DNA of 24,000 bases from an uncultured Acetivibrio sp. GTDB lineage: Bacteria > Bacillota > Clostridia > Lachnospirales > Lachnospiraceae. Within the stretch, counting starts at the first letter, position 1. The number at the start of each line of letters is the position of its first letter. The stretch covers positions 25,357 through 49,356 of the forward strand of contig CATKYY010000002.1 of assembly GCA_949841225.1 (NCBI GenBank), in the 5' to 3' direction. A program made the position numbers and the translations under genes. Of this stretch, positions 7,676 through 24,000 are shown piece after piece. The notes beneath the pieces were generated by a model. It had not been told where the DNA came from, made no database searches, and was given only the letters and a program-made list of their open reading frames with translations.

Positions 7676-7715
7676 TCCCCTTTTCCTTCTATATAGCTTT
7701 CCTGTTTTCCACCTT

Positions 7716-8540: not shown

Positions 8541-8552
8541 ATCTATCCCTCC

Positions 8553-9455
8553 TTAATTATAGTGAACCCATTTTTTCTGCGCAATCATCTGGAATACTGT
8601 AATAATCATAATAATCGCTAACAGAAGAACTACGATTGTGGAACCATATCCTTTATTATTCTCTACAAAAGAATTCTGATAGAACAGGTATACCAGAGAC
8701 TGGGTTTTGTAAAGCGCCGGATTGTTCCGGTCCATTACCATAAAAATCAAGTCGAATACCTGAAGGCCGCCAATAACCCTTGTAATTGTAACAAAGAAAA
8801 TCGTTGGTGACAAGAGGGGTATTGTAATATGGAAAAATTGCTTGATTCCAGTAGCTCCGTCAATACTTGCCGCTTCATAATAATCTCCCGGAATCTCCTG
8901 AAGGCCTGAAATAAACAATACCATATTGTAACCAATAATAGACCAGATTCCAATCACTGCAATAGAAAATACAGCGATTTTCGGGTCGGAAACCCACTTA
9001 ATACTTGTTCCAAAAATATGATTCAAAAGACCGAACTCTGCGTTAAATAACCATCTCCATACCATAGCAATCGCCGCTGGAGCTGCAACCATTGGCAGGA
9101 AAAAGATTGTACGGTAAGCAGAACGTCCAAACATCTTGCGGTTTAAAAGAACTGCAAGAACCAGGGAAATCGCAATAGAGAATGGAACCTCTACGATCGC
9201 ATACTTAAAAGTATTGATAACCGCCTGCCAGATTTCCGCATCTTTGAACATAGTTATGTAATTCTGAAAACCAATAAAAACATTGCCTCGACCAAAATCT
9301 CCGGTTTTAAAGAAACTTTCATATATTGTTTTAAAAATTGGATAAATATTCAGAATAATCAAGCCAATCATCGTTGGAAGGATAAACGCCCATCCCCAGA
9401 TAAACTCATTACGTTCCTGGCTTGTTCCTTTTTTTGGTTTTGCCAAAGTTCTCAC
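8553..9455 (-). CDS. Carbohydrate ABC transporter permease (CUT1 family, MsmF/MalF-like)
   Basis: 300 aa with six TM segments and the EAA loop YYEAASIDGATGIKQFFHITIPLL. The start is uncertain. The track start at 9455 is GTG directly abutting AAAGGGAG, and TTG at 9446 has better SD spacing. Confidence 0.88.
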   Translation of the reverse strand: MRTLAKPKKGTSQERNEFIWGWAFILPTMIGLIILNIYPIFKTIYESFFKTGDFGRGNVFIGFQNYITMFKDAEIWQAVINTFKYAIVEVPFSIAISLVLAVLLNRKMFGRSAYRTIFFLPMVAAPAAIAMVWRWLFNAEFGLLNHIFGTSIKWVSDPKIAVFSIAVIGIWSIIGYNMVLFISGLQEIPGDYYEAASIDGATGIKQFFHITIPLLSPTIFFVTITRVIGGLQVFDLIFMVMDRNNPALYKTQSLVYLFYQNSFVENNKGYGSTIVVLLLAIIMIITVFQMIAQKKWVHYN

Positions 9456-9477
9456 TCCCTTTCATTAACCGACCGAT

Positions 9478-10767
9478 TTAGTTTGCCTCCTGTGCAATGG
9501 TATCATTCATCTGCTTTGTAATATTTGCACATGCATCCGCCATACTCTCTTCGTTATTCCATGGTTTCTTAAGCTCTTCTACCATTGGATTCCACCAGGA
9601 TAAGGTAGCGTTGGTATGTGGTCTGAACACGATATTATCCATAGTATCCAGATATGGCTGAAGGTTAAATACATCGGTATTCTTAATCCATGCATCAGAT
9701 ACGCCGTCATAAGCCGCCATTGTTACGCCAAGCTCTGCCTGTTTTGTCTGCATTTCTTTCGTTCCGAACCACTCAATTAACTGGAACGCTTCCTCTGGCA
9801 TAGAGGTAGTAGCAGAAGCCGCCCATCCAAGCCCGTTATATAAAGATACGCTCTGACCTGTTGTTGCATCCTTTGGAAGTCTTGCAACATCGCAGTTCTC
9901 TACCAGATAATCATTTGCCTTAAAGCCTGCTACCATCCAGGAGCCCTGAGAAATCATAGCAACCCTTCCAGACTGGAATAATACGTCGGTACCTGTCTCA
10001 GACATGGTATTTGCATCCGGCATTACATTTTTAATACACTTATCAAGAAATTCCATTGCTTTAATTGTGTTAGGGTCGTCGAATCCAGATGTGTTATCAT
10101 CCTTTAAAATAGTTCCGCCCATAGAATATACAATGTTCATCCATGTATCCTGCTCGTTTGACGGGTTACATGCGAAACCGTACTGGCTTCCGTCTTCCTT
10201 TGTCAGCTTCTGTGCAATCTCATAAAACTCATCCCATGTCCAGCTTCCATCCGGATAAGGAATACCAGCCTCGTCAAACATCGTCTTGTTATACCACATA
10301 GCGATGGTATCCACATCCTTTGGCACAGCGTAAACCTTTCCGTCCCACTCGTACATTTCCTTAATATCCGCCGGGAATTTGTCCATTTCAAGCTTCTCGC
10401 TTGCGCTAATCTTATCTGTTAAGTCTAACAAAATACCATTAGACATATATCTAACAGCTTCGTTAGAATGCATCCAGAATACATCCGGCATGTCTCCGCC
10501 GGAAGCGCCCGCCTCTAAAAGAGTCCAGTACTGATCCCATGTAATAACCTGAAGCTCAGTCTTGATACCCGTTTCAGCTGTAAAATCGTTCATGATTTCC
10601 TGAAGGCCCGCCTGCTGTGAATTATCCCAGATAGCAACTGTCAGTTTACCGCTTCCGCCTGAACCTGAATTTGAGTCGGAGCCGCTCTTGCTGCCGCACG
10701 CTGTGAGCATTGTCGCCATCATTACAAGAACAAGCCCCAATGAGATAAATTTTTTCATATTCTTCAT
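9478..10767 (-). CDS. ABC transporter extracellular sugar-binding lipoprotein (CUT1, MsmE-like)
   Basis: 429 aa. A signal peptide with lipobox MLTAC-GS is followed by a Ser/Gly linker. The solute-binding protein family 1 architecture is present. A strong SD (AAAGGAGGAAAC) precedes the ATG. Confidence 0.9.
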   Translation of the reverse strand: MKNMKKFISLGLVLVMMATMLTACGSKSGSDSNSGSGGSGKLTVAIWDNSQQAGLQEIMNDFTAETGIKTELQVITWDQYWTLLEAGASGGDMPDVFWMHSNEAVRYMSNGILLDLTDKISASEKLEMDKFPADIKEMYEWDGKVYAVPKDVDTIAMWYNKTMFDEAGIPYPDGSWTWDEFYEIAQKLTKEDGSQYGFACNPSNEQDTWMNIVYSMGGTILKDDNTSGFDDPNTIKAMEFLDKCIKNVMPDANTMSETGTDVLFQSGRVAMISQGSWMVAGFKANDYLVENCDVARLPKDATTGQSVSLYNGLGWAASATTSMPEEAFQLIEWFGTKEMQTKQAELGVTMAAYDGVSDAWIKNTDVFNLQPYLDTMDNIVFRPHTNATLSWWNPMVEELKKPWNNEESMADACANITKQMNDTIAQEAN

Positions 10768-10894
10768 AGTTTCCTCCTTTTCGTCATAACGACATGTTTT
10801 TTCTGTGATTATTTTATCGTTTTATACAAATTTCATAAATGGAATAAAAAACTAACTTTATGGTTTTTTGAATATAGAAAAATGATTTTTTTTA

Positions 10895-10923
10895 TGGCAA
10901 AATGTCCTGCCTTGGGTTATAAT
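10895..10923 (+). promoter_or_regulatory. Candidate sigma-A promoter for the AraC-family regulator (TGGCAA-17 nt-TATAAT)
   Basis: TGGCAA at 10895-10900 and TATAAT at 10918-10923, ~35 nt upstream of ATG 10958, which has the SD AGGAGAA. Identified by eye only. Confidence 0.4.
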
Positions 10924-10957
10924 CAAAATATACTATAAAAAGAAGAAGGAGAATCGT

Positions 10958-11887
10958 ATGAACAATATCAAGTACACTGACAGCGCACAGTTTAAATGCT
11001 TGGAACATTTGCGGCAGACTTCTCTTGACTTATACCTGATACACTGTGGCAAAGAACAATGCCCCCCGTCGCATATATGCCCCGGGCGGCGGGACGAATA
11101 TATCATCCACTTTGTACTATCGGGAAAAGGAACCTATCTGGCAAACGGGAGTATATGGGAGGTTAAACCAGGCCAGATGTTCCTTATATATCCCAACGAA
11201 CCAGTAACCTATGCTTCAGATTCTGAGGACCCCTGGAGCTATGCATGGATTGGATTTAACGGCATTCAGGCAGACCGAATCATTAAAAACTGCGGGTTCT
11301 CAAAAAAGCGCTTAGTACAGCAATACAGAAATGCTGATACCATTATACATAATGTTGATAAAATCCTGGAAGCACGACAGCTTTCTTATACAAATGATCT
11401 AAAACGAAAATCTTATTTGTTTATGCTACTTTCTGAACTGGTAGACAGCTACCTGGCCCTTGAACCAAAAAAAGCTATTGGCAAATATGATTACCGCAGC
11501 AATGTATATGTAGAGCATGCCATCGAATATATTAGATTTTCATATCAGGAAGGCATTAATGTATCTGACATTTCTGATTACATCGGTATCAGCAGAACCT
11601 ATTTAAACCATACCTTTCAAAAAGAACTTGGCATCTCTGTTCAAAAATTTTTAATAGATTTTCGCCTTCACAAAGCTGCAAATATGCTGACCAGTTCAGA
11701 TAAAACAGTAAATGAAGTCGCAAAATCTGTCGGATATGAAGACCCTCTTGCTTTTTCAAAAGCATTCAAGAAAAAATTCGAAATAAGCCCAAAACACTAC
11801 CGGGCCCATCAAGATAAAATGGAGAAATTCTCCGAAAAACAAATCGATCCAGTTCCACCTAGTATTCATATTGAAGCCATAAAATAA
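10958..11887 (+). CDS. AraC-family transcriptional regulator (cupin sugar-sensing domain plus two HTH motifs), MsmR/RafR-like
   Basis: The N-terminal cupin-like block is YIIHFVLSGKGTY...GQMFLIYPNEP. The C-terminal AraC HTH pair is ISDYIGISRTYLNHTFQKELG and VNEVAKSVGYEDPLAFSKAFKKKF. It is divergent from the sugar ABC operon. Confidence 0.88.
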   Translation: MNNIKYTDSAQFKCLEHLRQTSLDLYLIHCGKEQCPPSHICPGRRDEYIIHFVLSGKGTYLANGSIWEVKPGQMFLIYPNEPVTYASDSEDPWSYAWIGFNGIQADRIIKNCGFSKKRLVQQYRNADTIIHNVDKILEARQLSYTNDLKRKSYLFMLLSELVDSYLALEPKKAIGKYDYRSNVYVEHAIEYIRFSYQEGINVSDISDYIGISRTYLNHTFQKELGISVQKFLIDFRLHKAANMLTSSDKTVNEVAKSVGYEDPLAFSKAFKKKFEISPKHYRAHQDKMEKFSEKQIDPVPPSIHIEAIK

Positions 11888-11927
11888 GAACTCAGGGAGC
11901 TGCAGCTTCATGCCACAACTCCCTGAG
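11881..11927 (-). terminator. Rho-independent terminator closing the long minus-strand operon; also sits after the convergent AraC gene
   Basis: CTCAGGGAG (11891-11899) pairs with CTCCCTGAG (11919-11927), a 9-bp GC-rich stem. On the minus-strand RNA the stem is followed by UUCUUAUUUU (complement of 11881-11890). On the plus strand no U-tract follows. Confidence 0.6.
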
Positions 11928-11941
11928 CCCGATAACCTTAG

Positions 11942-12820
11942 CTATTCTATTGGTTTAAGATAAAAGCCTCCATAAAAATCTTCCGACTTAAAGGTATTGA
12001 TAATCGCATGGGGATCAACGTCCCTCATAAGCTTTGCAATATCCTGAATTTCATAACTGGACACTACCGTATGCAAAAGGCTTACGCTCTTTCCGCTGTA
12101 CCCTCCAATTCCATCCACTCTGGAAATACCATGCCGGTATTCTGCCACATACGCCTTGATAATATCGTCCGCTTTGCTTGTCGTCACCTGCATTGTCATA
12201 CGCTCATACCTGTGATAGAAGGAATCTATGGTTTTTGTAGAAATAAACTGGAATAAAATAGAATATCCCGCATACTCCCAGCCAAACATAAATCCGAAAA
12301 TAGTAATCAACGTCGCATTAAATACAAATACATAACTCCAAATGGATTTTCCCAGCTTATTGGAAATAAACAAAGCGACAAAGTCTACGCCTCCTGTGGA
12401 TGCATTTCCCTTCAGGGCGATTACCGTCATGATTCCGTAAGAAAAGCCTCCAAAAATAACATTCAGCAAAACATCGTCAAATAAAGGCTCAAAGCTTAAT
12501 ACCTTTAAAAAGAAGCTGGCAAAAAATACCTGGAGCAGAGAGAAAAATGTAAATCTTTTACTAATGCTCTTACTGCATAATATAGCTACTGGAATATTCA
12601 AAACCAACATTCCCAGAGAGGTAGAAAAAGAAAAACCAAAAAAGGTGGAAGTAATCTTTTCTATCAAAATAGCTACCCCTGTGAACCCGCTAGAAAGCAA
12701 ATTAATCGGGTTCATAAAAATTTTCATAATGGCCGCCTGTAAAAAGCCCGCCAATAAAACGCTCAGGAACGTATATAAATACCTTAATTTTTCATTATTT
12801 CTTATTATATGAATGTTCAT
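11942..12820 (-). CDS. YitT-family membrane protein with a C-terminal DUF2179-like domain
   Basis: 292 aa. There are ~5-6 TM segments including STGGVDFVALFISNK. The soluble C-terminal domain is ISRVDGIGGYSGKSVSLLHTVVSSYEIQDIAKLMRDVDPHAIINTF. The start ATG overlaps the CutC stop (ATGA at 12817-12820). Confidence 0.7.
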   Translation of the reverse strand: MNIHIIRNNEKLRYLYTFLSVLLAGFLQAAIMKIFMNPINLLSSGFTGVAILIEKITSTFFGFSFSTSLGMLVLNIPVAILCSKSISKRFTFFSLLQVFFASFFLKVLSFEPLFDDVLLNVIFGGFSYGIMTVIALKGNASTGGVDFVALFISNKLGKSIWSYVFVFNATLITIFGFMFGWEYAGYSILFQFISTKTIDSFYHRYERMTMQVTTSKADDIIKAYVAEYRHGISRVDGIGGYSGKSVSLLHTVVSSYEIQDIAKLMRDVDPHAIINTFKSEDFYGGFYLKPIE

Positions 12821-13557
12821 ATCCTTGCAACCAGCTTCTTAACTAAATTTTCATCGACCACATCGTAATCATTTTCATGAGGCTCCGCCGCATAAGCATA
12901 GGATACCTCCGGGCCTGTCGTGGTAGGATCGCACAGCCAGCCCTTACAGGAGCTGTGAACCTGTGAGATTCCCGTCTTTTCCATCATTTCCTTTGCATTA
13001 TCTGCATTCATGCCGCTGCCTGCCAACAGCTCAATGCGGTCCCCGTATTTCTTCTGTAAATCGGCAATCAGCTCCATTCCGTCCATGGCCTTGGCCTTCT
13101 GACCGCTGGTCAGCACGCGGGTAACTCCCATTTCTATTAGCTTTTCCATTGTCTGATATGGGTCCTGCACACAATCAAAAGCACGATGGAAAACAGCCTC
13201 GCCTTTATACTCTTTAATAATATCAATAATTTCCTGGGTTTGGGACTCATCCACATTACCCTCTTTGTCAAGACATCCAAAAGCAAGACCGTCCGCCCCA
13301 TTTTCCATTAGCAGCCTGGCATCCGCTTTCATAACCTCAAATTCAGCGGCGCTATAGCAGAATCCAGCTCCTCTTGGCCTTACCATGGCAATGACCCTCA
13401 GCTCTGTATTTTTCTTTGTTAAAAGCAAAGTTCCCAGAGATGGAGTCAGGCCTCCCAGATGTAACGCGCTGTTTAATTCAATACGGCCTGCTCCTCCATG
13501 GTACGCCGCCAGTGCATCCTCATAGCTTCCGCAGCATATTTCTATTACTTTTTCCAT
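12817..13557 (-). CDS. cutC: CutC-family TIM-barrel protein (annotated copper homeostasis protein; true function unclear)
   Basis: [42 protein letters not shown] matches the remembered E. coli CutC N-terminus ([38 protein letters not shown]). I chose the start at ATG 13557 over 13569 because it puts the gene in the same register relative to the conserved leader element as copies B-D. Confidence 0.85.
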   Translation of the reverse strand: [246 protein letters not shown]

Positions 13558-13599
13558 ATTAATCCCCATTTCCGCACTGCCTTTTATGCATAGCAGTCT
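13558..13599 (-). repeat. Conserved pre-start leader element, copy A (upstream of cutC)
   Basis: Sense strand: AGACTGCTATGCATAAAAGGCAGTGCGGAAATGGGGATTAAT|ATG. ACTGC can pair with GCAGT to form a short hairpin ending just 5' of the GGAAATGGGG SD region. Confidence 0.55.
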
Positions 13600-13611
13600 T
13601 ATATAAAGCGC

Positions 13612-14703
13612 TTATCGAATCATTAAAGTAAAGCTGTTGCTTGGCTTAATACAATCTAAAATCAACTGCTCGCCTGTATTGATATGCCCTACATAGTTAT
13701 ATTCATCGCTTGCTTTAATCTCATCTAAAACAACCATCAGCTCGCCTGCATAATGCTTCAAATTATCATTTACAATAATTACGTCTCCCTTTGTGAAAAC
13801 ATCCTTGACATTTTCACGAGGAGCGATGGTCTCTCCCTTATATTTTATCCTTGGGAAGCTGGACCTTACTACCAACTCATTACAGTCGTCCCTGGAAGCA
13901 TGCATATCGCAGATAATAATTTCCTTTTCAATATCAGAAACTCCCTCTGCCAAATCAACCTTCATGGAGATTTTATTCAGGTTTACCTCCGCCATAGCCT
14001 TTAACTCTTCTTCGCTTGCAAAAGCGTTTCCAACCATAAAGTCGTTGCAGAAGCCCAAAGCGTTCAAATGCCTTACCTGCACATCAATTGGAAGATCTCT
14101 GTGAATTTCCAGCGTTGGCAATCCGTCATAGACCTCCCACGGACCATGGGTATGTTCTTCCTGGCTTGTTACAAAAGCCGCGTTATTGAGGCCTAAAGGC
14201 TGGTATTTGCTGTTTAATTCTTTAAAACGAGCAAGACCCATGCCTGTATTCCTCTGTGGATAGAAATTGCTGCAAATGCACATATTCGTCCGATTGGCGC
14301 CCTTTTCTAACATCATAGCCAGCGCCATATTACCGGATGCATTGTACTCAATCAAAATATTATGCGGATTCTTGGTAATCTCAATATCCTCTAATTCTCC
14401 AAAGTGGCCGTCCAAACGAATCACGTCTACGCCCATCTGAGCGAAAACAGACAAATCCCTTGGAGTTGCCCCAAGCCTTTCAAAAACCTCCGGGTTCGTA
14501 TCTACAGATACCATCAAGCCGCTCTCATGAGCAACGTTGCAAAACTCTGTAAACTCCTCTACAATCTTTTCCTTACTTTCCTTCACGGATAATAAACAGG
14601 TAAATACTCTTTTGAAACCATACTTTCCAGCCAACCTCATATAGTTATAGCATTCTTCCTTTGAAGCATGCTCTGGATAAACAGAAATTCCAAGTCTTTT
14701 CAA
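13612..14703 (-). CDS. DUF871/MupG-family protein (putative 6-phospho-beta-glycosidase; family prototype is 6-phospho-N-acetylmuramidase)
   Basis: 363 aa. The N-terminus MKRLGISVYPEH...YGFKRVFTCLL...GLMVSVDTNPEVFERLG...GVDVIRLDGHFG follows the remembered S. aureus MupG pattern (LGFSVY...GF..IFTSL...VDIS...GLRMDYG). The start is TTG 14703, with GGAGG 7 nt upstream overlapping the stop of the preceding gene. Confidence 0.7.
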   Translation of the reverse strand: MKRLGISVYPEHASKEECYNYMRLAGKYGFKRVFTCLLSVKESKEKIVEEFTEFCNVAHESGLMVSVDTNPEVFERLGATPRDLSVFAQMGVDVIRLDGHFGELEDIEITKNPHNILIEYNASGNMALAMMLEKGANRTNMCICSNFYPQRNTGMGLARFKELNSKYQPLGLNNAAFVTSQEEHTHGPWEVYDGLPTLEIHRDLPIDVQVRHLNALGFCNDFMVGNAFASEEELKAMAEVNLNKISMKVDLAEGVSDIEKEIIICDMHASRDDCNELVVRSSFPRIKYKGETIAPRENVKDVFTKGDVIIVNDNLKHYAGELMVVLDEIKASDEYNYVGHINTGEQLILDCIKPSNSFTLMIR

Positions 14704-14714: not shown

Positions 14715-15830
14715 CTATAAACCTTTTAGCATTTCATACAATGCATAGGCATAAATCTGTGCATTTTTTTCAATGTCGCAAATCCGCATCCACTCGTTCG
14801 GCAGATGCCCGATTCCTTTTTGTCCCTTAAAACTCGGTCCAAAAGGAACAATGTTTTTAACTACCTTAGCATAGGTGCCGCCGGTCGTTGTAACCGCGCT
14901 GCCGTCCTCGCCCATAATTTCTTCATAGGCCTTTTCCAGGGTCTTAATCAAATAAGTATCCTTCTCAAAAAATACCGGATTAATATTAGAATCCAAGGTA
15001 AGCGTCATATGCTCGCTGCAAAGCTTTCCAAGCTTTTCTTCCATGGTTTCCAGCTTATAAGAAGCCGGATAGCTGGAAACCAGCGTTAAACCGCAGGTCT
15101 CTTCATCCTGGAACAGCTCTACCTTCCTTACCTGGTTCTTTCCAAATTCCTCGTCTGAATAATCAACCCCAAGACTGACGGACAAATCGCTCTGGTTCAA
15201 AATATACTGGTTCATAAAGGAAACCAGTTCGTCCAGATTATCCTTTGGAAGGCTGTATTTATATACTGCCCGTCCTCTCTCGGCATAAATAACCGGATAT
15301 TTGCAGTCCGGCGTCCAGCCCATAAGCGGATATTTATGGTCCTTAAAGTACCATTTCATATCCTCCATCCCGGTTTCTTCATTTGTTCCAAAAATAATCT
15401 TAACCTTTAAAGGAAATTCATAGCCAAGATCTGCCAACGCCTTCATTGCATATAAGCAGCAAAACATTGGTCCTTTATTATCCAGTACTCCCCTTGCATA
15501 CAGAGTTCCATCGATCTCTGTACATACAAAAGGGTCCGTCTTCCAGGCGCCGTTAATATCTACAACATCTAAATGCCCAACACAGGCAATATAATCCTCC
15601 GTATCTGGTCCATAAGAAGCAATACCAATCTGATTTCCTACATTTTCTGTTTCAAATCCCAGCCTCTCTGCAATTTCCAGGGCTTTATTCAGGCAGTCGG
15701 TAACTCTTTTTCCGAAAGGATGCTCTGGCGTAGCCGTATCCTGACGAGAATCCATGTTACACACTGTTTTAATATCCTCTACTAAAGCCGGAAGCAATTC
15801 GCTGACATGATTAATAATCTTTTCTTTCAT
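14715..15830 (-). CDS. M20-family metallopeptidase (PepV/dipeptidase-like catalytic blocks)
   Basis: 371 aa with intact M20 ligand blocks: CVGHLDVVD, YARGVLDNKGP, FGTNEETG, WTPDCKYPVIYAERG, GIGHLPNE. No signal peptide. Confidence 0.8.
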   Translation of the reverse strand: MKEKIINHVSELLPALVEDIKTVCNMDSRQDTATPEHPFGKRVTDCLNKALEIAERLGFETENVGNQIGIASYGPDTEDYIACVGHLDVVDINGAWKTDPFVCTEIDGTLYARGVLDNKGPMFCCLYAMKALADLGYEFPLKVKIIFGTNEETGMEDMKWYFKDHKYPLMGWTPDCKYPVIYAERGRAVYKYSLPKDNLDELVSFMNQYILNQSDLSVSLGVDYSDEEFGKNQVRKVELFQDEETCGLTLVSSYPASYKLETMEEKLGKLCSEHMTLTLDSNINPVFFEKDTYLIKTLEKAYEEIMGEDGSAVTTTGGTYAKVVKNIVPFGPSFKGQKGIGHLPNEWMRICDIEKNAQIYAYALYEMLKGL

Positions 15831-15878: not shown

Positions 15879-16832
15879 TTATTCCTCAACTGGCGCCATA
15901 CGCACGCGCATATACTCTTCCAGCCATTCCTGGCTTGCTACCTCAAAGGTGCAATGGCCATCTTCCTGCCTAGTTACAAGATAGACGGTAGGCTCCAGCT
16001 CTTCTGTAGCGACACTAAAGGAAAAGCCTGCAATATTTGTAGCGCAGCCAAACTCTCCCTTATTATTCATTGCAACAACAGAAAGGTCTCCGGCTGCTCC
16101 TCTTTTTTCCTTCAGCTTCTTATCCAGGTCGTTTACTGCTTTTTCACAAGCCTCTTGCGGCGTCAGGCCTTCCTTCATTAAACGAACAATTTCATAAGAA
16201 ATACAGCCCTTCATTAAATCCTCTCCTAAACCGGTAGCTGTAGCGCCGCCGACTTCAGAATCTGCGTAAAATCCAGAACCAACAATTGGAGAATCTCCAA
16301 CACGGCCGCTTCTCTTCATAAATAAACCGCTTGTGCTGGTAGCCGCCGTCACTGTCCCGGAATTGTCCAGGCAAACCATACCTACCGTATCATGTCCGTC
16401 ATAAGGCTTTAATTCCTGGCTAAGTTCTTTTTTCTTTTTCCTGTAAAATGCTTTTGCCCGGTCAGTAAGCATTTCTTTTTCTTCAAATTTAAACTCATGG
16501 GCATATTTTTCTGCTCCAGCTCCTACCAGAACATTATTTACCTTTTCCTCGCTAAGCTTCTTTGCAATACTGATTGGATTTGCAAAATCCTTGATGGCTC
16601 CAATCGCGCCTACGCTCATTGTGTCCCCATCCATATAGCCTGCGTCCAGCTCAACCACCTGTTCTTCGTTTGGCAATCCGCCGTAGCCTACAGACTTATA
16701 ATATGGGAAATCCTCTACCGCGCGAATTGCGGCCTCAATCGCCTTACCTGATGTTTCTCCGTCCTTTAATAACCCTTCTGCAAGCTCAATTCCTTCTTTT
16801 GCCATTCTCCATGTGGCTATAATCCCATGCAT
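15879..16832 (-). CDS. Ntn-hydrolase of the asparaginase_2 family, glycosylasparaginase (aspartylglucosaminidase) type; cytoplasmic
   Basis: 317 aa. The autoprocessing and nucleophile block DGHDTVGMVCLD resembles human AGA RGHDTIGMVVI. GRVGDSPIVGSGFYAD resembles AGA GRVGDSPIPGAGAYAD. The N-terminus IIATWRMAKEG resembles AGA VVNTWPF, whereas isoaspartyl peptidases start with IHGGAG. SVGYGGLPNE...ELDAGYMDG is also present. The protein starts directly at the conserved core with no signal peptide. Confidence 0.75.
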   Translation of the reverse strand: MHGIIATWRMAKEGIELAEGLLKDGETSGKAIEAAIRAVEDFPYYKSVGYGGLPNEEQVVELDAGYMDGDTMSVGAIGAIKDFANPISIAKKLSEEKVNNVLVGAGAEKYAHEFKFEEKEMLTDRAKAFYRKKKKELSQELKPYDGHDTVGMVCLDNSGTVTAATSTSGLFMKRSGRVGDSPIVGSGFYADSEVGGATATGLGEDLMKGCISYEIVRLMKEGLTPQEACEKAVNDLDKKLKEKRGAAGDLSVVAMNNKGEFGCATNIAGFSFSVATEELEPTVYLVTRQEDGHCTFEVASQEWLEEYMRVRMAPVEE

Positions 16833-16843: not shown

Positions 16844-17908
16844 CTAATATTCTAATATTTCCCCATAAACCTTTTCATTCATATCCTTAGCAAGCTCACA
16901 AATCAGGCGGATACACGCCTCTACGTCATCTGCGTGAATAATGCTGTGATTTGTATGCATATACCTGATAGGAATTGACAAAGTCATATTCACAACTCCC
17001 TCAAATGCCTTATGGATATTTCCAGAATCCGTTCCGCCCATATTAAATATTGCATATTGATGCTCAATATCATTCTTTTTGCAAATCGACTCAACATACC
17101 TGACAAGTCCCCGCGGGGCAATAGAGTTAGAATCAATCATTGACAGCACTACGCCTTTGCCCAAAGAGCAAATATTATGGTTCATCGGCGTATCGCCAGC
17201 TAAAGTAGTATCAATAGCAAAGGCAATATCTGGATACACCGTCTCTACAGCCGTCCTGGCTCCGCGAAGCCCCGGCTCTTCCTGAACTGTATTCGCCAGG
17301 TACAGCGGCGTATGCTCTTCCTTTTCCAGTCTTTTAGCGGCCTCTATCATAATATAATTGCCAATACGGTCGTCAAAGGCCTTACAGGAGATATATTTCT
17401 GATTGTTCATAACCTCAAAATGGGCTAATGGGGCTACCATATCCCCAACCTGAATTCCCAGGTCCAGCGCCTCCTGCTTGCTTCCAACGCCCAAATCCAG
17501 ATACACGTCTTCAATAGAAACCGTTTTGTTCCTGGTTTCCGCAGGCAGCCCATGCGTTGCCATGCTGCCCATCAGAGCATGGTATTCCCTTTTATCTCTT
17601 GTTACAATAGTATACCACTGCCCTAAAACCATATGGCTCCACCAGCTACCGATTGTCTGTACCTTAATAAATCCATGGTCGTCAATGCTTTTTACCATAA
17701 ACCCAACTTCATCCATATGGGCTGCAACCATCATCTTAGGTCCGCTGTGATTGGTACATTTACTAGCGATTACACTGCCCAACCCATCTCTTTCACATGG
17801 AAGGTTAAGAGCCTTATATTCTTCCTCCAGAATATTTCCAATTTCCTGTTCAAAAGAGGAAATACCATAGGCAGAACATATTTTATCTAATTTTTCTAAA
17901 TTAATCAT
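16844..17908 (-). CDS. M42-family (TET/FrvX-like) aminopeptidase with an intact metal site
   Basis: All five M42 ligand blocks are present: AAHMDEVG, KAFDDRIGN, VQEEPGLRGA, AFAIDTT, RYMHTNHS. I set the start at ATG 17908 (MINLEKLDKICSAYGISSFE). It aligns with the N-terminus of the upstream paralogue, lies 1 nt after that gene's TGA, and has GGTGAT upstream. The track start at 17935 would overlap by 26 nt. Confidence 0.85.
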   Translation of the reverse strand: MINLEKLDKICSAYGISSFEQEIGNILEEEYKALNLPCERDGLGSVIASKCTNHSGPKMMVAAHMDEVGFMVKSIDDHGFIKVQTIGSWWSHMVLGQWYTIVTRDKREYHALMGSMATHGLPAETRNKTVSIEDVYLDLGVGSKQEALDLGIQVGDMVAPLAHFEVMNNQKYISCKAFDDRIGNYIMIEAAKRLEKEEHTPLYLANTVQEEPGLRGARTAVETVYPDIAFAIDTTLAGDTPMNHNICSLGKGVVLSMIDSNSIAPRGLVRYVESICKKNDIEHQYAIFNMGGTDSGNIHKAFEGVVNMTLSIPIRYMHTNHSIIHADDVEACIRLICELAKDMNEKVYGEILEY

Positions 17909-17909
17909 T

Positions 17910-18926
17910 TCAATCACCAAACCCAAATTCAGCAAGCTTTTTAGAATTTATTGTTTCTAAATAAGCGGCCAATGCATTAACTAAAGCATCCACGTCCTCT
18001 GCCCTGCAGATTTCATTTGCGCTTCCCATATTATCTACTGCAATGCCCACGCTGATTGCAGGGGTTCCCTTTAACGTCTTATGAATAAAAGAACCGTCGT
18101 TTCCAGTCAGACCAAAATAAGCCTTTGTTTCCACTTCTTTTGCAAAATCCTTTAAAAATACCTGGGACGGCAACATCTGGCGGTCATAATAACCAAGAAC
18201 AACGCCGTCTCCCGGATGCACCTTTTTCTGCGCTGTATCAAAGCCTGTCAGAGCAATAGCGGCATCCGGCTTAATTACATAGGTTGCCGTTTTCGTTCCT
18301 CTGTACCCAATAACAGACTGTCCAATACACCCGGCAGCAATATGGAAATCAAATTCTTTATCTTTTATCTTTTCCATAAGCTCCAGCGTAACCTCATTGA
18401 AAACACGAGGGAAAAGAGCCTTTGACATAATAATTCCGTTATTTTCATTGAAATTATTTCCATAAGCTACCAGGTCTCCCGGATGAAGCAGCTCCTTCAT
18501 CTCATCATACTTCAAACCGCACTCAATTACCAAGTCGTCTGCGCTCTTGATTTCACACTTATCTTCCAGCGCCTTTTTCCCCGTAGTAATTACGCCGTCT
18601 ACATAGGTATTCTCTCTTGTCAGTATCCGCACGCGCTGATGCAAAAGAGAGCTTGGCGAAACGCTTTCCAACTGAATGAATGCAAGAGTTCCATTGTCCT
18701 TTACTTCTGAAACCATAAGCCCTACTTCGTCCAATGCAGAAGCGATCATCAATGTCTGCGCCGTTTCATTCTTTGACCTTTTGAATGCAAAAACCGAGCC
18801 CAGCCGATCGCATTTTATTTCATCGCATAAAGGCTCATAATCTTTTTGAAGCGTTCTTCCAATCATATGCTCCGCGCTGCTGACCCCAAAACTATTACAT
18901 AATTTTTCTAATCTCTTGGTATCCAT
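17910..18926 (-). CDS. M42-family paralogue with all five metal-ligand positions substituted (probable pseudo-peptidase subunit)
   Basis: 338 aa, colinear with the downstream M42 (MDTKRLEKLCNSFGVSSAE vs MINLEKLDKICSAYGISSFE). The ligand blocks read ASALDEVG (H to A), KALFPRVFN (DD to FP), GQSVIGYRG (EE to SV), AIALTGF (D to T) and VDNMGSANE (H to G). The SD AAAGGAG precedes ATG 18926. Confidence 0.75.
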   Translation of the reverse strand: MDTKRLEKLCNSFGVSSAEHMIGRTLQKDYEPLCDEIKCDRLGSVFAFKRSKNETAQTLMIASALDEVGLMVSEVKDNGTLAFIQLESVSPSSLLHQRVRILTRENTYVDGVITTGKKALEDKCEIKSADDLVIECGLKYDEMKELLHPGDLVAYGNNFNENNGIIMSKALFPRVFNEVTLELMEKIKDKEFDFHIAAGCIGQSVIGYRGTKTATYVIKPDAAIALTGFDTAQKKVHPGDGVVLGYYDRQMLPSQVFLKDFAKEVETKAYFGLTGNDGSFIHKTLKGTPAISVGIAVDNMGSANEICRAEDVDALVNALAAYLETINSKKLAEFGFGD

Positions 18927-18974: not shown

Positions 18975-19499
18975 TTAATAACAAACTCGGTTTTTAATGC
19001 TCTCAAGATCGCTCGAATTTTCAACCATGCCTGTAATAAGGTCGCATAAATCTGAGAAACTGTCATTTAAGCCGGTTCCTCCCTTTTTCGGCATTTTAAC
19101 AATAGGAGTTTTGTCTTTATAATTTTCAATTGTGTCTGCATTTTCAACCGACATCATAGCGCAGGACTTAAGATCCGTGTTCTCTGAAATGGACGCGGAA
19201 ATCATAGCCGCCATTTTAGCATAATCAGGGAAGTTAAAGCATGGGCCGCATACAACAAAGTCAGGGTTTACCTTCTTTGCCATAGCTGTCATTTTCTTTA
19301 TAACCTCTTCCTGGTTGTTTAAGAAATATTCATTACCGCAATATAAAGTAGCAGCAACTGTAGCTCCGATTTTAGCAAAATGGGATTCCAGCATCAACGC
19401 TGAACCAATACCGCCCTTTACAGCAGTCAATCCAACATTTGGATTTGTTTTTCCTCCGGCTCCAGCTAAGCCTTGATCAAAAATCAATACTATTTTCAT
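18975..19499 (-). CDS. Stand-alone homologue of the N-terminal domain of glycine/sarcosine/betaine reductase component B (GrdB-like); function unknown
   Basis: 174 aa. MKIVLIFDQGLAGAGGKTNPN...GIGSALMLESHF...ATVAATLYCGNEYFLNNQEEVIKKM...NPDFVVCGPCFNFPDYAKMAAMISASI parallels my recollection of GrdB N-termini (VVHYINQFFAGIGGEEKAD...GPGMALQ...IVATVICGDSYFNEN...PDLFIAGPAFNAGRYG). There is no in-frame TGA. I set the start at ATG 19499, 2 nt after the EIIC TGA; the track uses TTG 19505. Confidence 0.45.
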   Translation of the reverse strand: MKIVLIFDQGLAGAGGKTNPNVGLTAVKGGIGSALMLESHFAKIGATVAATLYCGNEYFLNNQEEVIKKMTAMAKKVNPDFVVCGPCFNFPDYAKMAAMISASISENTDLKSCAMMSVENADTIENYKDKTPIVKMPKKGGTGLNDSFSDLCDLITGMVENSSDLESIKNRVCY

Positions 19500-19501
19500 A
19501 A

Positions 19502-20854
19502 TCAATCCAACCCCAAATCATCAAATGATAAATCGTCAATTTCGTCTGTCTGTCCTTCCAGCGCACTTTCCTCATCTAAATACTTCTTATCCAGCAGCTT
19601 GAAGAATGGGTAGTAAACTAAAATATCTACTACTAACTGAACAATCTGGACAAGAGAGCCCATTACGCTTCCTGTTACCAGGAAACCGGATGCGATGATA
19701 GGAGTCGTCCATGGAAGCTGAACGCCTAATGTGATTGGCATAATACCTACAACAGTAGCTAAATATGCAATAATTGTGTTAATAACTGGCACCAGGATAA
19801 ACGGAATTGCCATCAATGGGTTTAATACCATTGGCAGACCGAAAATAATCGGCTCATTAATTCCGAAGATACCTGCCGGCAATGACAGCTTTCCAAGAGT
19901 TTTCATACGGTTTGACTTTCCTAAGAACGCCATCATGATAACCAGGCCCAGAGTACTTCCGCCGCCGCCAAAGTTACAGAAGAAATCTGAGAAACCAGCT
20001 GTAAAGATGTTGGTCATTTCCAAACCAGCCTGAGCTGCTTCATAGTTTTCAACTGTCAGTACCTTATGTATAGGAGCGAAAATTGTATTGGTTACGGCTG
20101 GTCCGTTAATACCGAAAAACCAGAACAAGGTGGATAAGAACTGATAGATTACTTCAAATCCTGCCAACTTACCTAAACCAACCAATGGAGCCTGCAGTAC
20201 CTGATAAATAAAGTAATGTACATATTTGTAGCTTGTGTGGTCGAATATAATACCAATCGCAAAGAAGATAACCATTGCAATCGCAGATGGTATCAATGCT
20301 GCTAAAGATTCCATTACTGCAGGAGGCACGCCTTCTGGCAATTTAATAATCAATTTCTTCTTAATAGCCCAGGCATAAATCTCAACAGATATAATTGCAG
20401 TAATCATCGCAAGGAACATACCTGCAGTTCCTAAGAAAGTGAAAGTAAATCCACTAACAGAGCCTGCTTCTGCAGCGCCTTCTAATTCTACGATAGTTTT
20501 CTGTGGAGTAATAATCAAGAAACATACTAAAGCTACAACTCCGCCGCCGATTCTGTTTTCCAAGCCTTTTTCACGGGCATAACAATAACCAATACTCAAT
20601 ACGCCCAGCAGAGCAACGCAGTCAAAAGCAATCGCTGTTACCCTTCCCATGTAAGCGTCCCAGCCTTCTCCAAAAATAGAGGTCATGAAGTTTAAAAAGC
20701 CCTCTATTGGGAAGTTAGAAATTAACAGGAAAATAGAACCAACAATGGTAATTGGGACAGTAATCAAAAATCCGTCTCTAATCGCAGATAATACCTTATT
20801 CTTTGACAGAATATTTGCAACAGGCATTAAAAGCTTTTCAAGTTTCTGCATCAT
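19502..20854 (-). CDS. PTS EIIC, lactose/cellobiose/chitobiose (Lac) family
   Basis: 450 aa and polytopic. The Lac-family EIIC signature GINEPIIFGLPMVLNP resembles ChbC/CelB ITEPVIFGLPIVMNP. An acidic C-terminal tail (DEESALEGQTDEIDDLSFDDLGLD) is present. Confidence 0.9.
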   Translation of the reverse strand: MMQKLEKLLMPVANILSKNKVLSAIRDGFLITVPITIVGSIFLLISNFPIEGFLNFMTSIFGEGWDAYMGRVTAIAFDCVALLGVLSIGYCYAREKGLENRIGGGVVALVCFLIITPQKTIVELEGAAEAGSVSGFTFTFLGTAGMFLAMITAIISVEIYAWAIKKKLIIKLPEGVPPAVMESLAALIPSAIAMVIFFAIGIIFDHTSYKYVHYFIYQVLQAPLVGLGKLAGFEVIYQFLSTLFWFFGINGPAVTNTIFAPIHKVLTVENYEAAQAGLEMTNIFTAGFSDFFCNFGGGGSTLGLVIMMAFLGKSNRMKTLGKLSLPAGIFGINEPIIFGLPMVLNPLMAIPFILVPVINTIIAYLATVVGIMPITLGVQLPWTTPIIASGFLVTGSVMGSLVQIVQLVVDILVYYPFFKLLDKKYLDEESALEGQTDEIDDLSFDDLGLD

Positions 20855-20857: not shown

Positions 20858-21181
20858 TTAATTCCCTCTACTTTCTTTGTAAATCTTCAGTGCCTTTTTC
20901 AGAACTCTCTCGCCGTCTACGTTACCATAGTCAACGCTATCAATAACGGTAACAACATGGTCCTTACTATATCTTTCAGCAACCTTCTCATAAAGATGCT
21001 TTACCTGCGGCCCTAACAGAATTACTTCTGGATTGAATTCATTTACAATATCACCCATGTTGGCCTCAGAAAATGCCTTTACCTCCAAATCCAGCTTATG
21101 CGCGTCAGCAACTTTCTGCATTTTGCTTGCTAACAAACTTGTAGACATTCCAGCGCTGCAAAATAAATAGAATCTTTTCAT
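20858..21181 (-). CDS. PTS EIIB, chitobiose/cellobiose type
   Basis: MKRFYLFCSAGMSTSLLASKM matches E. coli ChbB HIYLFCSAGMSTSLLVSKM, including the phospho-Cys. LLGPQV and VIDSVDYGNVDGERVLK also parallel ChbB. Confidence 0.92.
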   Translation of the reverse strand: MKRFYLFCSAGMSTSLLASKMQKVADAHKLDLEVKAFSEANMGDIVNEFNPEVILLGPQVKHLYEKVAERYSKDHVVTVIDSVDYGNVDGERVLKKALKIYKESRGN

Positions 21182-21200: not shown

Positions 21201-21509
21201 TTAATTTTTATTTTTGTATAACTCGATCAACTCTGCAACTAACAGCTTTGCTGTTTCTGCAGCCATTAATTGATCTTCCGCGTGCATTAACAGCAGGCAC
21301 ATTTCTGTTTTCTCTCCGCCTGCCTCTTTAGAAATCAAATCCGCATGCTGCTTATGTCCGTTTGCATAGCATTCATCTCCATGCTTCATTGTTTCCGCAG
21401 CCTTCTCAAAATCTCCTTTCTTAGCGCATTCCAGGGCGTTGATATAATCGCTCTTCGCCTCCCCGACAGCGGAAATAATTTTAAAGCAAATTAATTCCAT
21501 TTCTTCCAT
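21201..21509 (-). CDS. PTS EIIA, lactose/cellobiose/chitobiose type
   Basis: 102 aa of helical-bundle type. ...AKKGDFEKAAETMK...LLLMHAEDQLMAAE...AELIELYK parallels E. coli ChbA (QAKQGDFAAAKAMM...LVLVHAQDHLMTS...TELIELHEK), including the phospho-His. Confidence 0.9.
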   Translation of the reverse strand: MEEMELICFKIISAVGEAKSDYINALECAKKGDFEKAAETMKHGDECYANGHKQHADLISKEAGGEKTEMCLLLMHAEDQLMAAETAKLLVAELIELYKNKN

Positions 21510-21523: not shown

Positions 21524-22084
21524 TTAAATTTTTTTATTTTCAATTACTTTACTGCGCGCCAAATAATCATGGACCGCCATATTGCTTTTAAATACCAGGA
21601 TCGCCGACACCGTCAACATTCCTGAGCTTATATAGTTTAATGCTTTTCCAGCCATGTCGAAGGTCAGCATAGAAACTATCTGCGTAAAATAATTACCGGT
21701 AAGCATAAAAGCTCCCTCTAAAAGCATAACTCCTGCAAGCTGTCGTATAGCAAGCTTTCCAGTGGAAAGCGGCTGGCCATTCTCATCAACAATCTTAATA
21801 CCCATAAGTTTTTTCCCTACTGTCTGGCCTTCCCATGCCCATAAAGGAATAATATAATAGTATACAGCGCCAAACAATAGTCCCAACAAGCCCGCCAACA
21901 ATCCATAAGGACTTTTAAATAAAGTAAGATCCGTATTGATTGCCTCTTCTCCTGTCAGCATATTCCATAAAAGACCCGCCGGTATTGTACTGAAAGCAGA
22001 CCCCAGATACCAGTCGATTAAAAATGCAAAGCCCCTTTTATTCCACGGCGCAAATGCTGCTTTCAATTTCGTTTGTTTTTTCAT
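21524..22084 (-). CDS. RDD-family membrane protein; first gene after the regulator
   Basis: 186 aa. WNKRGFAFLIDWYLGS and GQTVGKKLMGIKIVDENG are typical RDD-domain blocks, and there are 3-4 TM segments. Confidence 0.65.
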   Translation of the reverse strand: MKKQTKLKAAFAPWNKRGFAFLIDWYLGSAFSTIPAGLLWNMLTGEEAINTDLTLFKSPYGLLAGLLGLLFGAVYYYIIPLWAWEGQTVGKKLMGIKIVDENGQPLSTGKLAIRQLAGVMLLEGAFMLTGNYFTQIVSMLTFDMAGKALNYISSGMLTVSAILVFKSNMAVHDYLARSKVIENKKI

Positions 22085-22191: not shown

Positions 22192-24000
22192 TCAGCACTT
22201 AATAATTAAATCAATGAACTCTTTTGCGCTTTGCGCTTTCATAATATTTGATAAAAGCAGGGTATCATCGCAGATATTTCCAAACCATTCAAAAAAAATC
22301 TTTAATAAATCTCTTTCATCCTCCCGAATAGCCAGAAGTAATACCAACCTGACCTGATAACCCCCCCATTGCACAGGTTTCTTTAAAATAGCAATACCCA
22401 TAGTAGACTTAACCGCCGAATAATTTAACGCATGCGGAATAGCATAACCATAGCTAAAAGAGGTATACGCCATATTTTCCCTTTCAAAGGTAGACTCCTT
22501 AAAGGATTCCTCAACCCGGCCGCCTTCATACATCTTATCACATAAATATTCAATAACATTTTCATAGCTACTGCAATCCAGGTTATAAAAATAATAATCG
22601 TCTAAAATCAGGCCTCTGATGGATTTATCAAATTCCATCCTATAGTGCTTTTTATCAAGTTCTGTAATCGCCTGAAAAATCTTATATTCATCGCTGGTGT
22701 TTACAAACATACTTATGTGGACTGTCGGAATGTTCAATTTATGCGTAAGCGCTATCGTCGTAATAATCAAATCAGGATGAAGCCTTTCTATCACCGGCGC
22801 TTCATAATAGGACAAAACTGTATCAACAACTATTCTTTCACCAAAATGCTCTGCTATCTTATCTTTACAAATATCTGATAAGGTACTGCTGTTTGGCTGA
22901 ATCAAAACAGCATGGTAAAAAGATTTAATATTTAACCTGTCATAAGCCGCCCCAATATGGATAGCTAAAAAACCAATCTCATCTTCCGAAACCGGACTGT
23001 TCACATATTCCTCAATAATAGAGCCAACAAAAACTCCTACCTCAAATACCAGCGGATAATTCTTTTTAATTTCTGCCAAACAAACATTCGAAACGCCAAT
23101 TTTATAATTTATCCTCTCCAGGAGGTTCTGCAAATGCAGGACAATACCGTCTTTAAAAACAATATCGCCGGAAAAATCAATATCATATCTTTGCTTAACC
23201 ATATCTATAATTTTAAGCATTAACTCTTCCGCCTGCAGCGAATGTTCTTCTTTATCAAGAAAAGCGTTCCTTCGCCTGTCAACCAGCAAATTTGCAAATA
23301 AAATAATTTCATTCTCATTTAACTCAAAATGAAGAAAAGATGTTACCTTCTCAAAAAATTCTATTGCAATCTCATATTCCTGCGTTTCCTTAATTTCGCA
23401 GTAATTTTTTTTCGTCTCAATATAGTTGCAGTTCATCATTCTTTGGATAGCTACGCCTACATGTATAATCAGCATCGGAAAAGTTTCTTCACGAACTTTA
23501 TAATTATGCTTTTCAAAAATTTCTTCCAAAAAATTCTTTACTTTAACTAAATCAAAATTGGAAAATAACTGAGCAATCTTATTTACATTAATAAAATTAC
23601 CTCTCGTCTCACTGGCAAGCAAATCCTTATAAACAAACCGCTTGCTCTCCTCTCTACCCTTTAGATAAAGATAATTTCCATTTTTAACCAGCTCGACATC
23701 ATCGTACTTTTCCAACATTTCCATAAGCCTTTTGATGTCGTTTTTAATTGTGGATTCACTAACATAAATATCATACTGCAAATCAAAAATATTCAGCTTC
23801 GGTTTATAAAAAAGCAGCTTTTCAATAATATACTTACATCTCTCTTCTGAAGTATGGGGAATATTTCTCCTAACTTCTAAGTTACTTTTTTCAAAAACCT
23901 CTTGATTAATCCTGTAGCCATAACGAACGCTGGATTCGACAATTCCTTCATATAGCTTTCCCAACTGGTCTATATCGTTGCGAATTGTCCGGTCAGAAAC
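22192..24000 (-). CDS. PRD-domain transcriptional regulator of the LicR/MtlR/ManR class (HTH, HTH, PRD1, PRD2, EIIB-like, EIIA(Mtl/Fru)-like); 5' end off the window
   Basis: The track ORF starts at an internal TTG (23964). The frame stays open to base 24000 and reads VSDRTIRNDIDQLGKLYEG..., a typical HTH_11 helix, so the gene is 5'-truncated by the window. A second HTH is VSESTIKNDIKRLMEML. PRD histidines occur in MLIIHVGVAIQRM and FLAIHIGAAYDR. The C-terminal EIIA type-2 block is YGYAIPHALN...VRLVLLLAI. Confidence 0.8.
   Translation of the reverse strand, partial: VSDRTIRNDIDQLGKLYEGIVESSVRYGYRINQEVFEKSNLEVRRNIPHTSEERCKYIIEKLLFYKPKLNIFDLQYDIYVSESTIKNDIKRLMEMLEKYDDVELVKNGNYLYLKGREESKRFVYKDLLASETRGNFINVNKIAQLFSNFDLVKVKNFLEEIFEKHNYKVREETFPMLIIHVGVAIQRMMNCNYIETKKNYCEIKETQEYEIAIEFFEKVTSFLHFELNENEIILFANLLVDRRRNAFLDKEEHSLQAEELMLKIIDMVKQRYDIDFSGDIVFKDGIVLHLQNLLERINYKIGVSNVCLAEIKKNYPLVFEVGVFVGSIIEEYVNSPVSEDEIGFLAIHIGAAYDRLNIKSFYHAVLIQPNSSTLSDICKDKIAEHFGERIVVDTVLSYYEAPVIERLHPDLIITTIALTHKLNIPTVHISMFVNTSDEYKIFQAITELDKKHYRMEFDKSIRGLILDDYYFYNLDCSSYENVIEYLCDKMYEGGRVEESFKESTFERENMAYTSFSYGYAIPHALNYSAVKSTMGIAILKKPVQWGGYQVRLVLLLAIREDERDLLKIFFEWFGNICDDTLLLSNIMKAQSAKEFIDLIIKC

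Follow-up and report, generated by a model that had tools for sequence, protein, structure and literature searches.

A predicted cytoplasmic glycosylasparaginase encoded within a sugar phosphotransferase operon of an uncultured Acetivibrio sp.

We analysed a 24,000-nucleotide stretch of DNA, called here the window, from an uncultured Acetivibrio sp. (GenBank assembly GCA_949841225.1, contig CATKYY010000002.1, positions 25,357 to 49,356), focusing on the gene at positions 15879-16832 of its minus strand. Its product is very probably a cytoplasmic, self-processing N-terminal nucleophile (Ntn) hydrolase of the glycosylasparaginase (GA) subfamily that is orthologous in kind to EgaG of Enterococcus faecalis and AsnA2 of Lactobacillaceae such as Lacticaseibacillus casei, and that acts in a pathway for N-acetylglucosaminyl-asparagine (GlcNAc-Asn), the universal stub of N-glycoprotein degradation. 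The protein belongs to the GA subfamily, has its catalytic residues conserved and carries no leader, and its gene is part of a phosphotransferase system (PTS) operon whose gene set is conserved across genomes.

The open reading frame (ORF) and homology define a proenzyme of 317 residues with an ATG start, which matches the Pfam family Asparaginase_2 with an E-value of 7e-64. The preliminary description of this DNA, which was silent on the strand, had stated that the protein lacks a signal peptide, and the sequence bears this out. The ORF begins at the earliest start codon following an in-frame stop, a strong Shine-Dalgarno sequence, AGGAGG, is located 7 nt 5' of the ATG, and the stop codon of the preceding M42 peptidase gene lies 11 nt 5' of it. 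In the alignment to the solved structure of the Flavobacterium enzyme, W8 pairs with W11 of the mature protein. The N-terminus has no hydrophobic segment, with a maximal Kyte-Doolittle mean over 12 residues of 0.68 versus 1.3-1.9 in the exported relatives, which have RRxF-type leaders of 35-70 residues. The ribosome-binding site, the start of the ORF, the W8/W11 correspondence and the hydropathy profile thus make the absence of a signal peptide, and a predicted cytoplasmic location, well supported. This GA is the only Asparaginase_2 protein encoded in the 2.4-Mb, 89%-complete genome.

That bacterial enzymes of this type are exported, which would have made a leaderless one a novelty, is an outdated view. 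Cytoplasmic GAs of Firmicutes have been described, namely AsnA2 (PMC6960285) and EgaG (Combret et al. 2023, cited in PMC11549559 and PMC11976118), and leaderless forms are common among the representatives of our sequence library. The assignment of the enzyme is itself routine, as close homologues are already correctly annotated by NCBI as N(4)-(beta-N-acetylglucosaminyl)-L-asparaginase.

Among proteins of known structure, the best phmmer matches are the GA precursors of Flavobacterium/Elizabethkingia, with 181 bits and an E-value of 2.6e-52 over residues 4-276. Human and guinea-pig ASRGL1 scored 123-128 bits and Escherichia coli EcAIII 115 bits, in alignments that begin only at residues 15-17. 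These values bear on an alternative identity, that of an isoaspartyl peptidase or plant-type L-asparaginase (IaaA/EcAIII or ASRGL1 type) devoid of sugar specificity, which would clear beta-aspartyl dipeptides or asparagine generated by the neighbouring peptidases. Both subfamilies belong to the same Pfam family and share the aspartate-binding pair R177/D180, three peptidase-family genes flank the GA gene, and some sources call its homologues 'isoaspartyl peptidase/L-asparaginase'. The sole NCBIfam match of the protein is also to a beta-aspartyl-peptidase equivalog, but at 114.9 bits it is far under the cut-off of 567. Other traits of the IaaA/EcAIII type are missing as well: the nucleophile is found in an HDT context instead of G-T-V-G-A, and the Pfam alignment starts from profile position 30, the trait in question being the N-terminal HGGAG strand.

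Structure prediction agrees with the sequence comparisons. An AlphaFold2 model built on an alignment of 45 sequences has a predicted local distance difference test (pLDDT) score of 95.5 and a predicted template modelling (TM) score of 0.93, with lower confidence only in the linker that precedes the cleavage site, at approximately residues 131-148. In a Foldseek search of the Protein Data Bank (PDB) with this model, the top 10 hits are all GA precursors (target-normalized TM scores 0.88-0.92, 33-35% identity); they are followed by ASRGL1, plant asparaginase, EcAIII and Taspase.

The motifs read earlier from the translation are all present. HDTVGM at the autoproteolytic site corresponds to residues 147-152 (16377-16394, minus strand), ATW near the N-terminus to residues 6-8 (16809-16817, minus strand) and the GRVGDSPI-type motif to GRVGDSPIVGSGFYAD, residues 176-191. 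The segment H147-D148-T149 pairs with H150-D151-T152 of Flavobacterium GA, so that the predicted scissile bond is D148/T149 and T149 is the predicted N-terminal nucleophile. Cleavage there would yield an alpha subunit of residues 1-148 (16.3 kDa) and a beta subunit of residues 149-317 (18.1 kDa). The alignment further matches T149, T167, R177, D180, T200 and G201 with T152, T170, R180, D183, T203 and G204 of the Flavobacterium enzyme, in which R180/D183 bind the aspartate moiety and T203-G204 form the oxyanion site. Residues T7, W8, H147, D148, T149, R177, D180, T200 and G201 are invariant in 45 leaderless and exported homologues.

The Trp residue of the ATW motif had been proposed to contact the sugar. 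W8, the equivalent of W11 in the Flavobacterium and human enzymes, is indeed present and invariant. However, its partner in the aromatic pair of the sugar site, F13, is replaced by Met10 in the leaderless clade of the query, and R9 occupies the position of N12. Furthermore, PDB entry 9gaf shows a GA with the W11F mutation trapped in its precursor form, so that autoprocessing may account for the conservation of the N-terminal Trp no less than contact with the sugar. Our literature search found no paper on glycosylasparaginase Trp11.

Other features distinguish the cytoplasmic enzymes, all taken from the clade of the query for this comparison, from the exported ones. Both the alignment and the model indicate a C-terminal extension of ~40 residues (approximately residues 277-317; 15879-16004, minus strand) that is missing in exported GAs. 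In the model, this segment forms two strands and a helix, and two of its residues, W303 and Y307, are kept across the cytoplasmic clade. In total, we counted ~35 conserved differences between the two groups, including M10, A11, K46, N99, R133, Y144, F171 and N266.

We then placed the protein in a maximum-likelihood tree (IQ-TREE, LG+G4, SH-aLRT branch support) of 148 rows rooted on E. coli IaaA (NC_000913). The other rows are the query, 124 library representatives of 270-430 residues from the 150 best matches, and 22 GA genes from loci of known context; fragments and multi-domain proteins were left out. A branch with an SH-aLRT value of 100 divides the tree into 143 GA-like rows and a remainder made up of E. 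coli IaaA with four rows of the GT type. The query belongs to a leaderless clade of 53 rows (support 99), 52 of which were scored as leaderless. For the one remaining row, P0147, the start seems to have been called too far upstream, as no signal-peptide h-region is seen within residues 1-40. This clade is characterized by a 'TWxM' motif, with Met at the F13 position, apart from a basal row with TWRF, one row with TWYF and two rows without a scorable TW. Almost all rows with leaders are found in a separate group of 59 rows (support 91), which includes a protein anchored to Elizabethkingia GA at 328 bits (P0240). The IaaA-like rows have neither the HDT motif nor the N-terminal TW segment.

The phylogenetic check proposed in the preliminary description thus shows that the window GA does not cluster with IaaA/EcAIII. 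Bit scores, the ten best structural matches, the maximally supported branch and the ega-type gene context of named relatives (see below) all identify a protein of the GA type rather than an isoaspartyl peptidase. Its conserved genetic partners are a sugar PTS and genes of the GlcNAc-related GH20 (glycoside hydrolase family 20), GH170 and ROK families, which does not fit an enzyme indifferent to sugars. We therefore reject the isoaspartyl peptidase identity, on the grounds of score, fold, tree and motifs, as very improbable.

The gene is the ninth of 13 co-oriented genes that form one operon on the minus strand, in agreement with the earlier statement that it sits inside a PTS operon. The first gene (22192-23964) codes for a transcriptional regulator of the LicR/MtlR class with Mga helix-turn-helix, PRD and EIIA(2) domains, and the second (21524-22084) for an RDD-family membrane protein. 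They are followed by the genes of PTS components of the lactose/cellobiose family, EIIA (21201-21509), EIIB (20858-21181) and EIIC (19502-20854; TIGR00410, 395 bits), all upstream of the GA gene and on the same strand. Gene 6 (18975-19505) encodes a GrdB-related protein of 176 residues without selenocysteine (NF041545, 232 bits). Next come two M42-family genes, at 17910-18926 and 16844-17935, the second of which codes for an aminopeptidase of the TET/FrvX type with intact metal ligands. Downstream of the GA gene are those of an M20-family, PepV/Sapep-like dipeptidase (14715-15830), which corresponds to the product of L. casei pepV and to the dipeptidase encoded in the ega locus of E. faecalis, of a GH170 protein with MupG_N and MupG_C domains (13612-14703), which is a putative ChbE-like 6-phospho-beta-N-acetylhexosaminidase, of a CutC-family TIM-barrel protein (12817-13569) and of a YitT-family membrane protein with a DUF2179 domain (11942-12820). 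A strong intrinsic terminator with a 19-bp stem, 10 G-C pairs and a T tract closes the operon on the same strand only after yitT (11888-11930).

The two M42 genes are colinear and their products share 27% identity. The product of gene 7 has lost its metal-ligand residues, with HMDE changed to ALDE, FDDR to LFPR, QEE to QSV and YMHT to NMGS; judging from these substitutions, it is a probable non-catalytic partner, and the pair possibly forms a catalytic/non-catalytic hetero-oligomer. M42-M42 pairs are also found 3' of the GrdB-like gene in Enterococcus gallinarum and Latilactobacillus sakei. The GrdB-like gene directly follows that of EIIC in the window, in most related loci and in these two species. 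By analogy with the DUF3284 proteins ChbD/CelI (PMC12791066), its product may be an accessory protein of the PTS.

We determined the extent to which this organization is conserved in a first set of 80 genome loci whose encoded GA proteins are 70-91% identical to that of the window. They come from Lachnospiraceae, Enterocloster, Hungatella, Clostridium, Faecalibacillus and other Erysipelotrichaceae. The core consisting of the PRD regulator, IIA, IIB, IIC, the GrdB-like protein, GA, M20, CutC and YitT is kept in approximately 60 of the 80. Among these loci, only the closest relatives have the M42 pair, and the GH170 gene shifts place or is missing. The PTS route for GlcNAc-Asn would thus be widespread in gut Clostridia and Erysipelotrichia, in the form of an enlarged, strongly conserved operon.

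In a sample of Bacilli, GA homologues with 36-85% identity were found in 30 of 400 genomes. Their neighbours include genes for EIIC, an M19 dipeptidase, aspartate ammonia-lyase and fumarase, GH20 hexosaminidases and CutC. The M19 dipeptidase is a non-homologous substitute in the M20 slot of some of these loci. We also observed Bacilli loci (L123, in genome G082 at 8176-14034, L124 and L126), some of which join EIIC-GA to aspartate ammonia-lyase/class II fumarase, CutC and class I fumarase. Such a linkage would channel the released aspartate to fumarate and malate.

Several Lactobacillales loci are of particular relevance. The GA of L. sakei (P0396) is 52% identical to that of the window over its full length, and its locus reads GA-GntR-IIC-GrdB-like-M42-M42-M20. 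The E. gallinarum locus reads YitT-GntR-M20-GA-IIC-GrdB-like-M42-M42. On an enterococcal-type contig, the GA is 55% identical over its full length and the locus reads GntR-M20-GA-IIB-IIC-IIA. A GntR gene was seen only in Lactobacillales loci, whereas the window and the Clostridia loci have the PRD/Mga/EIIA2 regulator.

ROK kinase genes occur only in loci in which no PTS was found (L133-136, L115 and L128), and none of the PTS loci has one. In a minimal PTS locus (L137), only the M20 and GA genes accompany the PTS. The YitT/DUF2179 gene is found with GA both in PTS loci, including L138, and in the kinase-type loci L133-136. In the latter, YitT is the sole membrane protein encoded beside M20-GA, and it may be a transporter of a substrate or product of the pathway.

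For this organism, we infer which substrate is used, that it carries a 6-phosphate and in which order the steps proceed. On N-glycoproteins, proteases and endo-beta-N-acetylglucosaminidases would leave behind GlcNAc-Asn, short peptides bearing GlcNAc-Asn and possibly chitobiosyl-Asn. The EIIA, EIIB and EIIC proteins would import these remnants and phosphorylate O6 of the non-reducing GlcNAc, as PTS permeases do, and the M42 and M20 peptidases would trim the peptide to free the alpha-amino and alpha-carboxyl groups of the Asn residue. The GA proenzyme would cleave itself at D148/T149, and T149 would then attack the N4 amide, to generate L-aspartate and 1-amino-GlcNAc or its 6-phosphate, both of which would decay to GlcNAc or GlcNAc-6-phosphate (GlcNAc-6P) and ammonium. 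GH170 would remove 6-phospho-GlcNAc from disaccharide substrates. Finally, NagA, whose gene is present elsewhere in the same genome, would pass GlcNAc-6P into glycolysis. By such a PTS route, gut Firmicutes would obtain a sugar as well as aspartate from the glycoproteins of the host and of its diet.

Some observations weigh against this reading. The GH170 and M42 genes are variable or absent in many GA loci, so that GlcNAc-Asn, chitobiosyl-Asn and a glycopeptide are all candidates for the species that is imported. The Met residue that replaces Phe in the classical sugar-binding pair indicates that the sugar pocket of the leaderless clade differs from those of the solved GAs. In addition, no alignment column separates the PTS-linked from the ROK-linked enzymes, and the clade-specific columns are common to both groups. 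Thus, the sequence cannot settle the question of phosphorylation, and we see no sign of a dedicated phosphate site.

That the substrate is intracellular and possibly phosphorylated had been proposed earlier on the grounds that it is delivered by the PTS. A leaderless enzyme in a PTS operon agrees with the first part, whereas the second is a point that we, too, infer. A 6-phosphorylated substrate would be consistent with the restriction of ROK genes to loci in which no PTS was found, with the existence of minimal PTS loci, with the presence of nagA in the genome and with the tolerance of AsnA2 for a 6-O-fucosyl group, as tolerance of O6 substitutions may be a property of the clade.

Alternatively, GA might act on unphosphorylated GlcNAc-Asn, if the PTS phosphorylates the distal sugar of a disaccharide-Asn (chitobiosyl-Asn) and GH170 removes GlcNAc-6P first. 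We consider this unlikely, although it has points in its favour. The operon does encode a GH170 protein, whose relative ChbE is required for the use of PTS-imported N,N'-diacetylchitobiose (PMC12791066), a ROK kinase gene adjoins those of enzymes from the clade of the query, 57% identical and alike in their pocket residues, in loci for which a PTS was not found, and there is one ROK gene elsewhere in the genome. However, many PTS loci, including L137-L139, have no GH170 gene within 10 kb, and in those the only species available to GA would be 6-phospho-GlcNAc-Asn. Moreover, the PTS of E. faecalis imports the monosaccharide conjugate GlcNAc-Asn (PMC11976118), and no PTS locus has a kinase for the released GlcNAc.

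We tentatively propose that the TWxM clade may be specialized for 6-O-substituted substrates, in which case GA would be a 6-phospho-glycosylasparaginase that acts on GlcNAc-6P-Asn in the PTS loci, and that CutC may process the glycosylamine-6-phosphate thus formed or another amino-sugar intermediate at the neutral pH of the cytoplasm. To our knowledge, 6-phospho-glycosylasparaginase activity has never been demonstrated in vitro. If the proposal is true, the CutC 'copper homeostasis' family would gain an enzymatic function.

The CutC gene is nearly always at most a few kb away from that of GA (L001-L080, L122, L123, L126 and L140-L148), including in loci for which no PTS was found and in divergent loci of Bacilli. 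In a phylum sample of 301 genomes, a CutC gene is present within 5 kb of a GA-type gene in five of the six GA-bearing genomes. A strict dependence of CutC on GA was nevertheless rejected, since 27 of the 32 CutC-bearing genomes of that sample have no Asparaginase_2 gene. In genomes of the latter kind, CutC is found next to a ROK kinase, a NagA-like amidohydrolase, GH1, a GH29 fucosidase and M17 or C69 peptidases. The cutC gene of Xanthomonas (XAC3091) adjoins an asparaginase gene (XAC3092) in the vicinity of the nix N-glycan cluster (PMC6718126, PMC5700972). These neighbourhoods point to a role of CutC in the metabolism of amino sugars or glycopeptides rather than in copper handling. We found no paper linking CutC with glycosylasparaginase or a glycosylamine in our literature search.

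The GH170 gene and the peptidases invite yet another interpretation, in which the operon recycles peptidoglycan. GH170 would then be a MupG acting on N-acetylmuramic acid-6-phosphate-GlcNAc (MurNAc-6P-GlcNAc), with the peptidases breaking down stem peptides and the Ntn hydrolase cleaving beta-linked D-Asp/D-Asn remnants of cross-bridges. The only biochemically characterized GH170 protein, as cited in PMC12791066, is indeed the 6-phospho-N-acetylmuramidase of Staphylococcus aureus, and the operon encodes several exopeptidases. However, the window has neither murQ nor murP, and many GA loci do without a GH170 gene. On another contig of the genome (C26, 3450-4157 and 8912-9781), murQ (393 bits) lies 5 kb away from a second GH170 gene with a better score (MupG_N, 319 bits), and this pair is presumably the real system for MurNAc-6P-GlcNAc recycling, distinct from the window GH170. 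With a better-scoring MupG paralogue close to murQ, the GH170 protein of the window is not the MurNAc enzyme of the genome. Furthermore, the known substrate of relatives of GA is GlcNAc-Asn (PMC6960285, PMC11976118). A function in peptidoglycan recycling is thus highly improbable, and we rejected it given the separate MupG-murQ pair and the absence of MurNAc genes from the window.

An unrelated sugar locus is found downstream of the operon (2770-10767 and 10958-11887). It comprises genes for a divergently transcribed AraC regulator, an ATP-binding cassette (ABC) sugar transporter with its substrate-binding protein and two permeases, a DUF624 protein, a GH36 alpha-galactosidase and a PfkB kinase, and is probably used for sugars of the raffinose or melibiose type.

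How does this operon compare with known systems? With respect to the enzyme itself, the GA of Elizabethkingia (Flavobacterium) meningoseptica and human AGA (PDB 1p4k, 9gaa, 2gl9 and 1apy) have the same fold as the window protein, with target-normalized TM scores of ~0.90. They share with it the HDT site, the Thr nucleophile, the Arg/Asp clamp for aspartate, the Thr-Gly oxyanion residues and the N-terminal Trp. In contrast, they are exported or lysosomal proteins with leaders, they belong to another clade, they have Phe at the site of Met10 and they are devoid of the 40-residue C-terminal extension. The exported enzymes also differ at ~30 more columns that are conserved in the cytoplasmic sequences compared.

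The chb cluster of Lacticaseibacillus paracasei encodes the PTS ChbABC, the DUF3284 protein ChbD and the GH170 protein ChbE (PMC12791066). Genetic data support the function of ChbE as a phospho-beta-N-acetylglucosaminidase needed for the use of PTS-imported N,N'-diacetylchitobiose in that species (PMC12791066). Like the window operon, this cluster combines a cellobiose-type PTS with GH170, and it has a gene for a small accessory protein right after that of EIIC. It differs by the absence of GA and peptidases, by an accessory protein that is of the DUF3284 rather than the GrdB-like type and by its substrate, N,N'-diacetylchitobiose.

Closer similarities are found with the alf-2 cluster of L. 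casei BL23 (Becerra et al. 2020, PMC6960285), in which the gene of AsnA2, a GA that lacks a signal peptide, neighbours pepV. AsnA2 cleaves itself to give bands of 18.2 and 17.8 kDa, and it hydrolyses both GlcNAc-Asn and 6'-fucosyl-GlcNAc-Asn; the 6-O-fucosyl substituent that it tolerates blocks the human enzyme (PMC6960285). The L. sakei gene asnA2 is listed as a homologue in the same work (PMC6960285). The window GA resembles AsnA2 by its predicted cytoplasmic location, its two predicted subunits (16.3 and 18.1 kDa, against two of ~18 kDa in AsnA2) and its linked PepV-type M20 dipeptidase. However, alf-2 has the major facilitator superfamily (MFS) permease AlfH, an alpha-L-fucosidase and the ROK kinase SugK, whereas the window has a PTS and neither a kinase nor a fucosidase. 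With such a permease, fucosidase and kinase, the substrate of AsnA2 is not phosphorylated.

The system most similar to that of the window is the ega (enterococcal glycosylasparaginase) locus of E. faecalis, egaRP with egaGBCD1D2. It encodes a GntR regulator, a dipeptidase, EgaG, EIIB, EIIC and a GrdB-type oxidoreductase pseudogene (PMC11549559), and the regulator, EgaR, is a repressor of the GntR family (PMC11549559, PMC11976118). E. faecalis takes up and grows on GlcNAc-L-Asn by means of the ega PTS together with the cellobiose-type EIIA CelA1, and there is genetic evidence that growth on GlcNAc-Asn depends on both the PTS and GA (PMC11976118). The window operon likewise has genes for a leaderless GA, an M20-type dipeptidase, EIIB and EIIC of the lactose/cellobiose family and a GrdB-type protein, its gene at 18975-19505 being the counterpart of the ega pseudogene. 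The ega locus was defined by Combret et al. (2023/24, Res Microbiol 175:104169), and to judge from the title of that paper, the route is reported to contribute to infection by E. faecalis.

The two systems nevertheless differ in several respects. Where E. faecalis has a GntR repressor, the window operon encodes an activator with PRD and EIIA domains, EIIA has its own gene whereas E. faecalis borrows CelA1, and the window operon adds RDD, the M42 pair, GH170, CutC and YitT. In addition, its host, a gut Clostridia-type metagenome-assembled genome, is not a member of the Lactobacillales. The kinship with EgaG and AsnA2 was judged from named congeners and from the published gene list rather than from the sequences of these two proteins; as the loci of L. 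sakei, E. gallinarum and the enterococcal-type contig match the ega gene list, the gene content identifies the window operon as an ega-type system with another regulator, its own EIIA and extra genes. It is thus of an already known kind, the concept of a cytoplasmic GA and its combination with a PTS being covered by L. casei AsnA2 (2020) and E. faecalis ega (2023).

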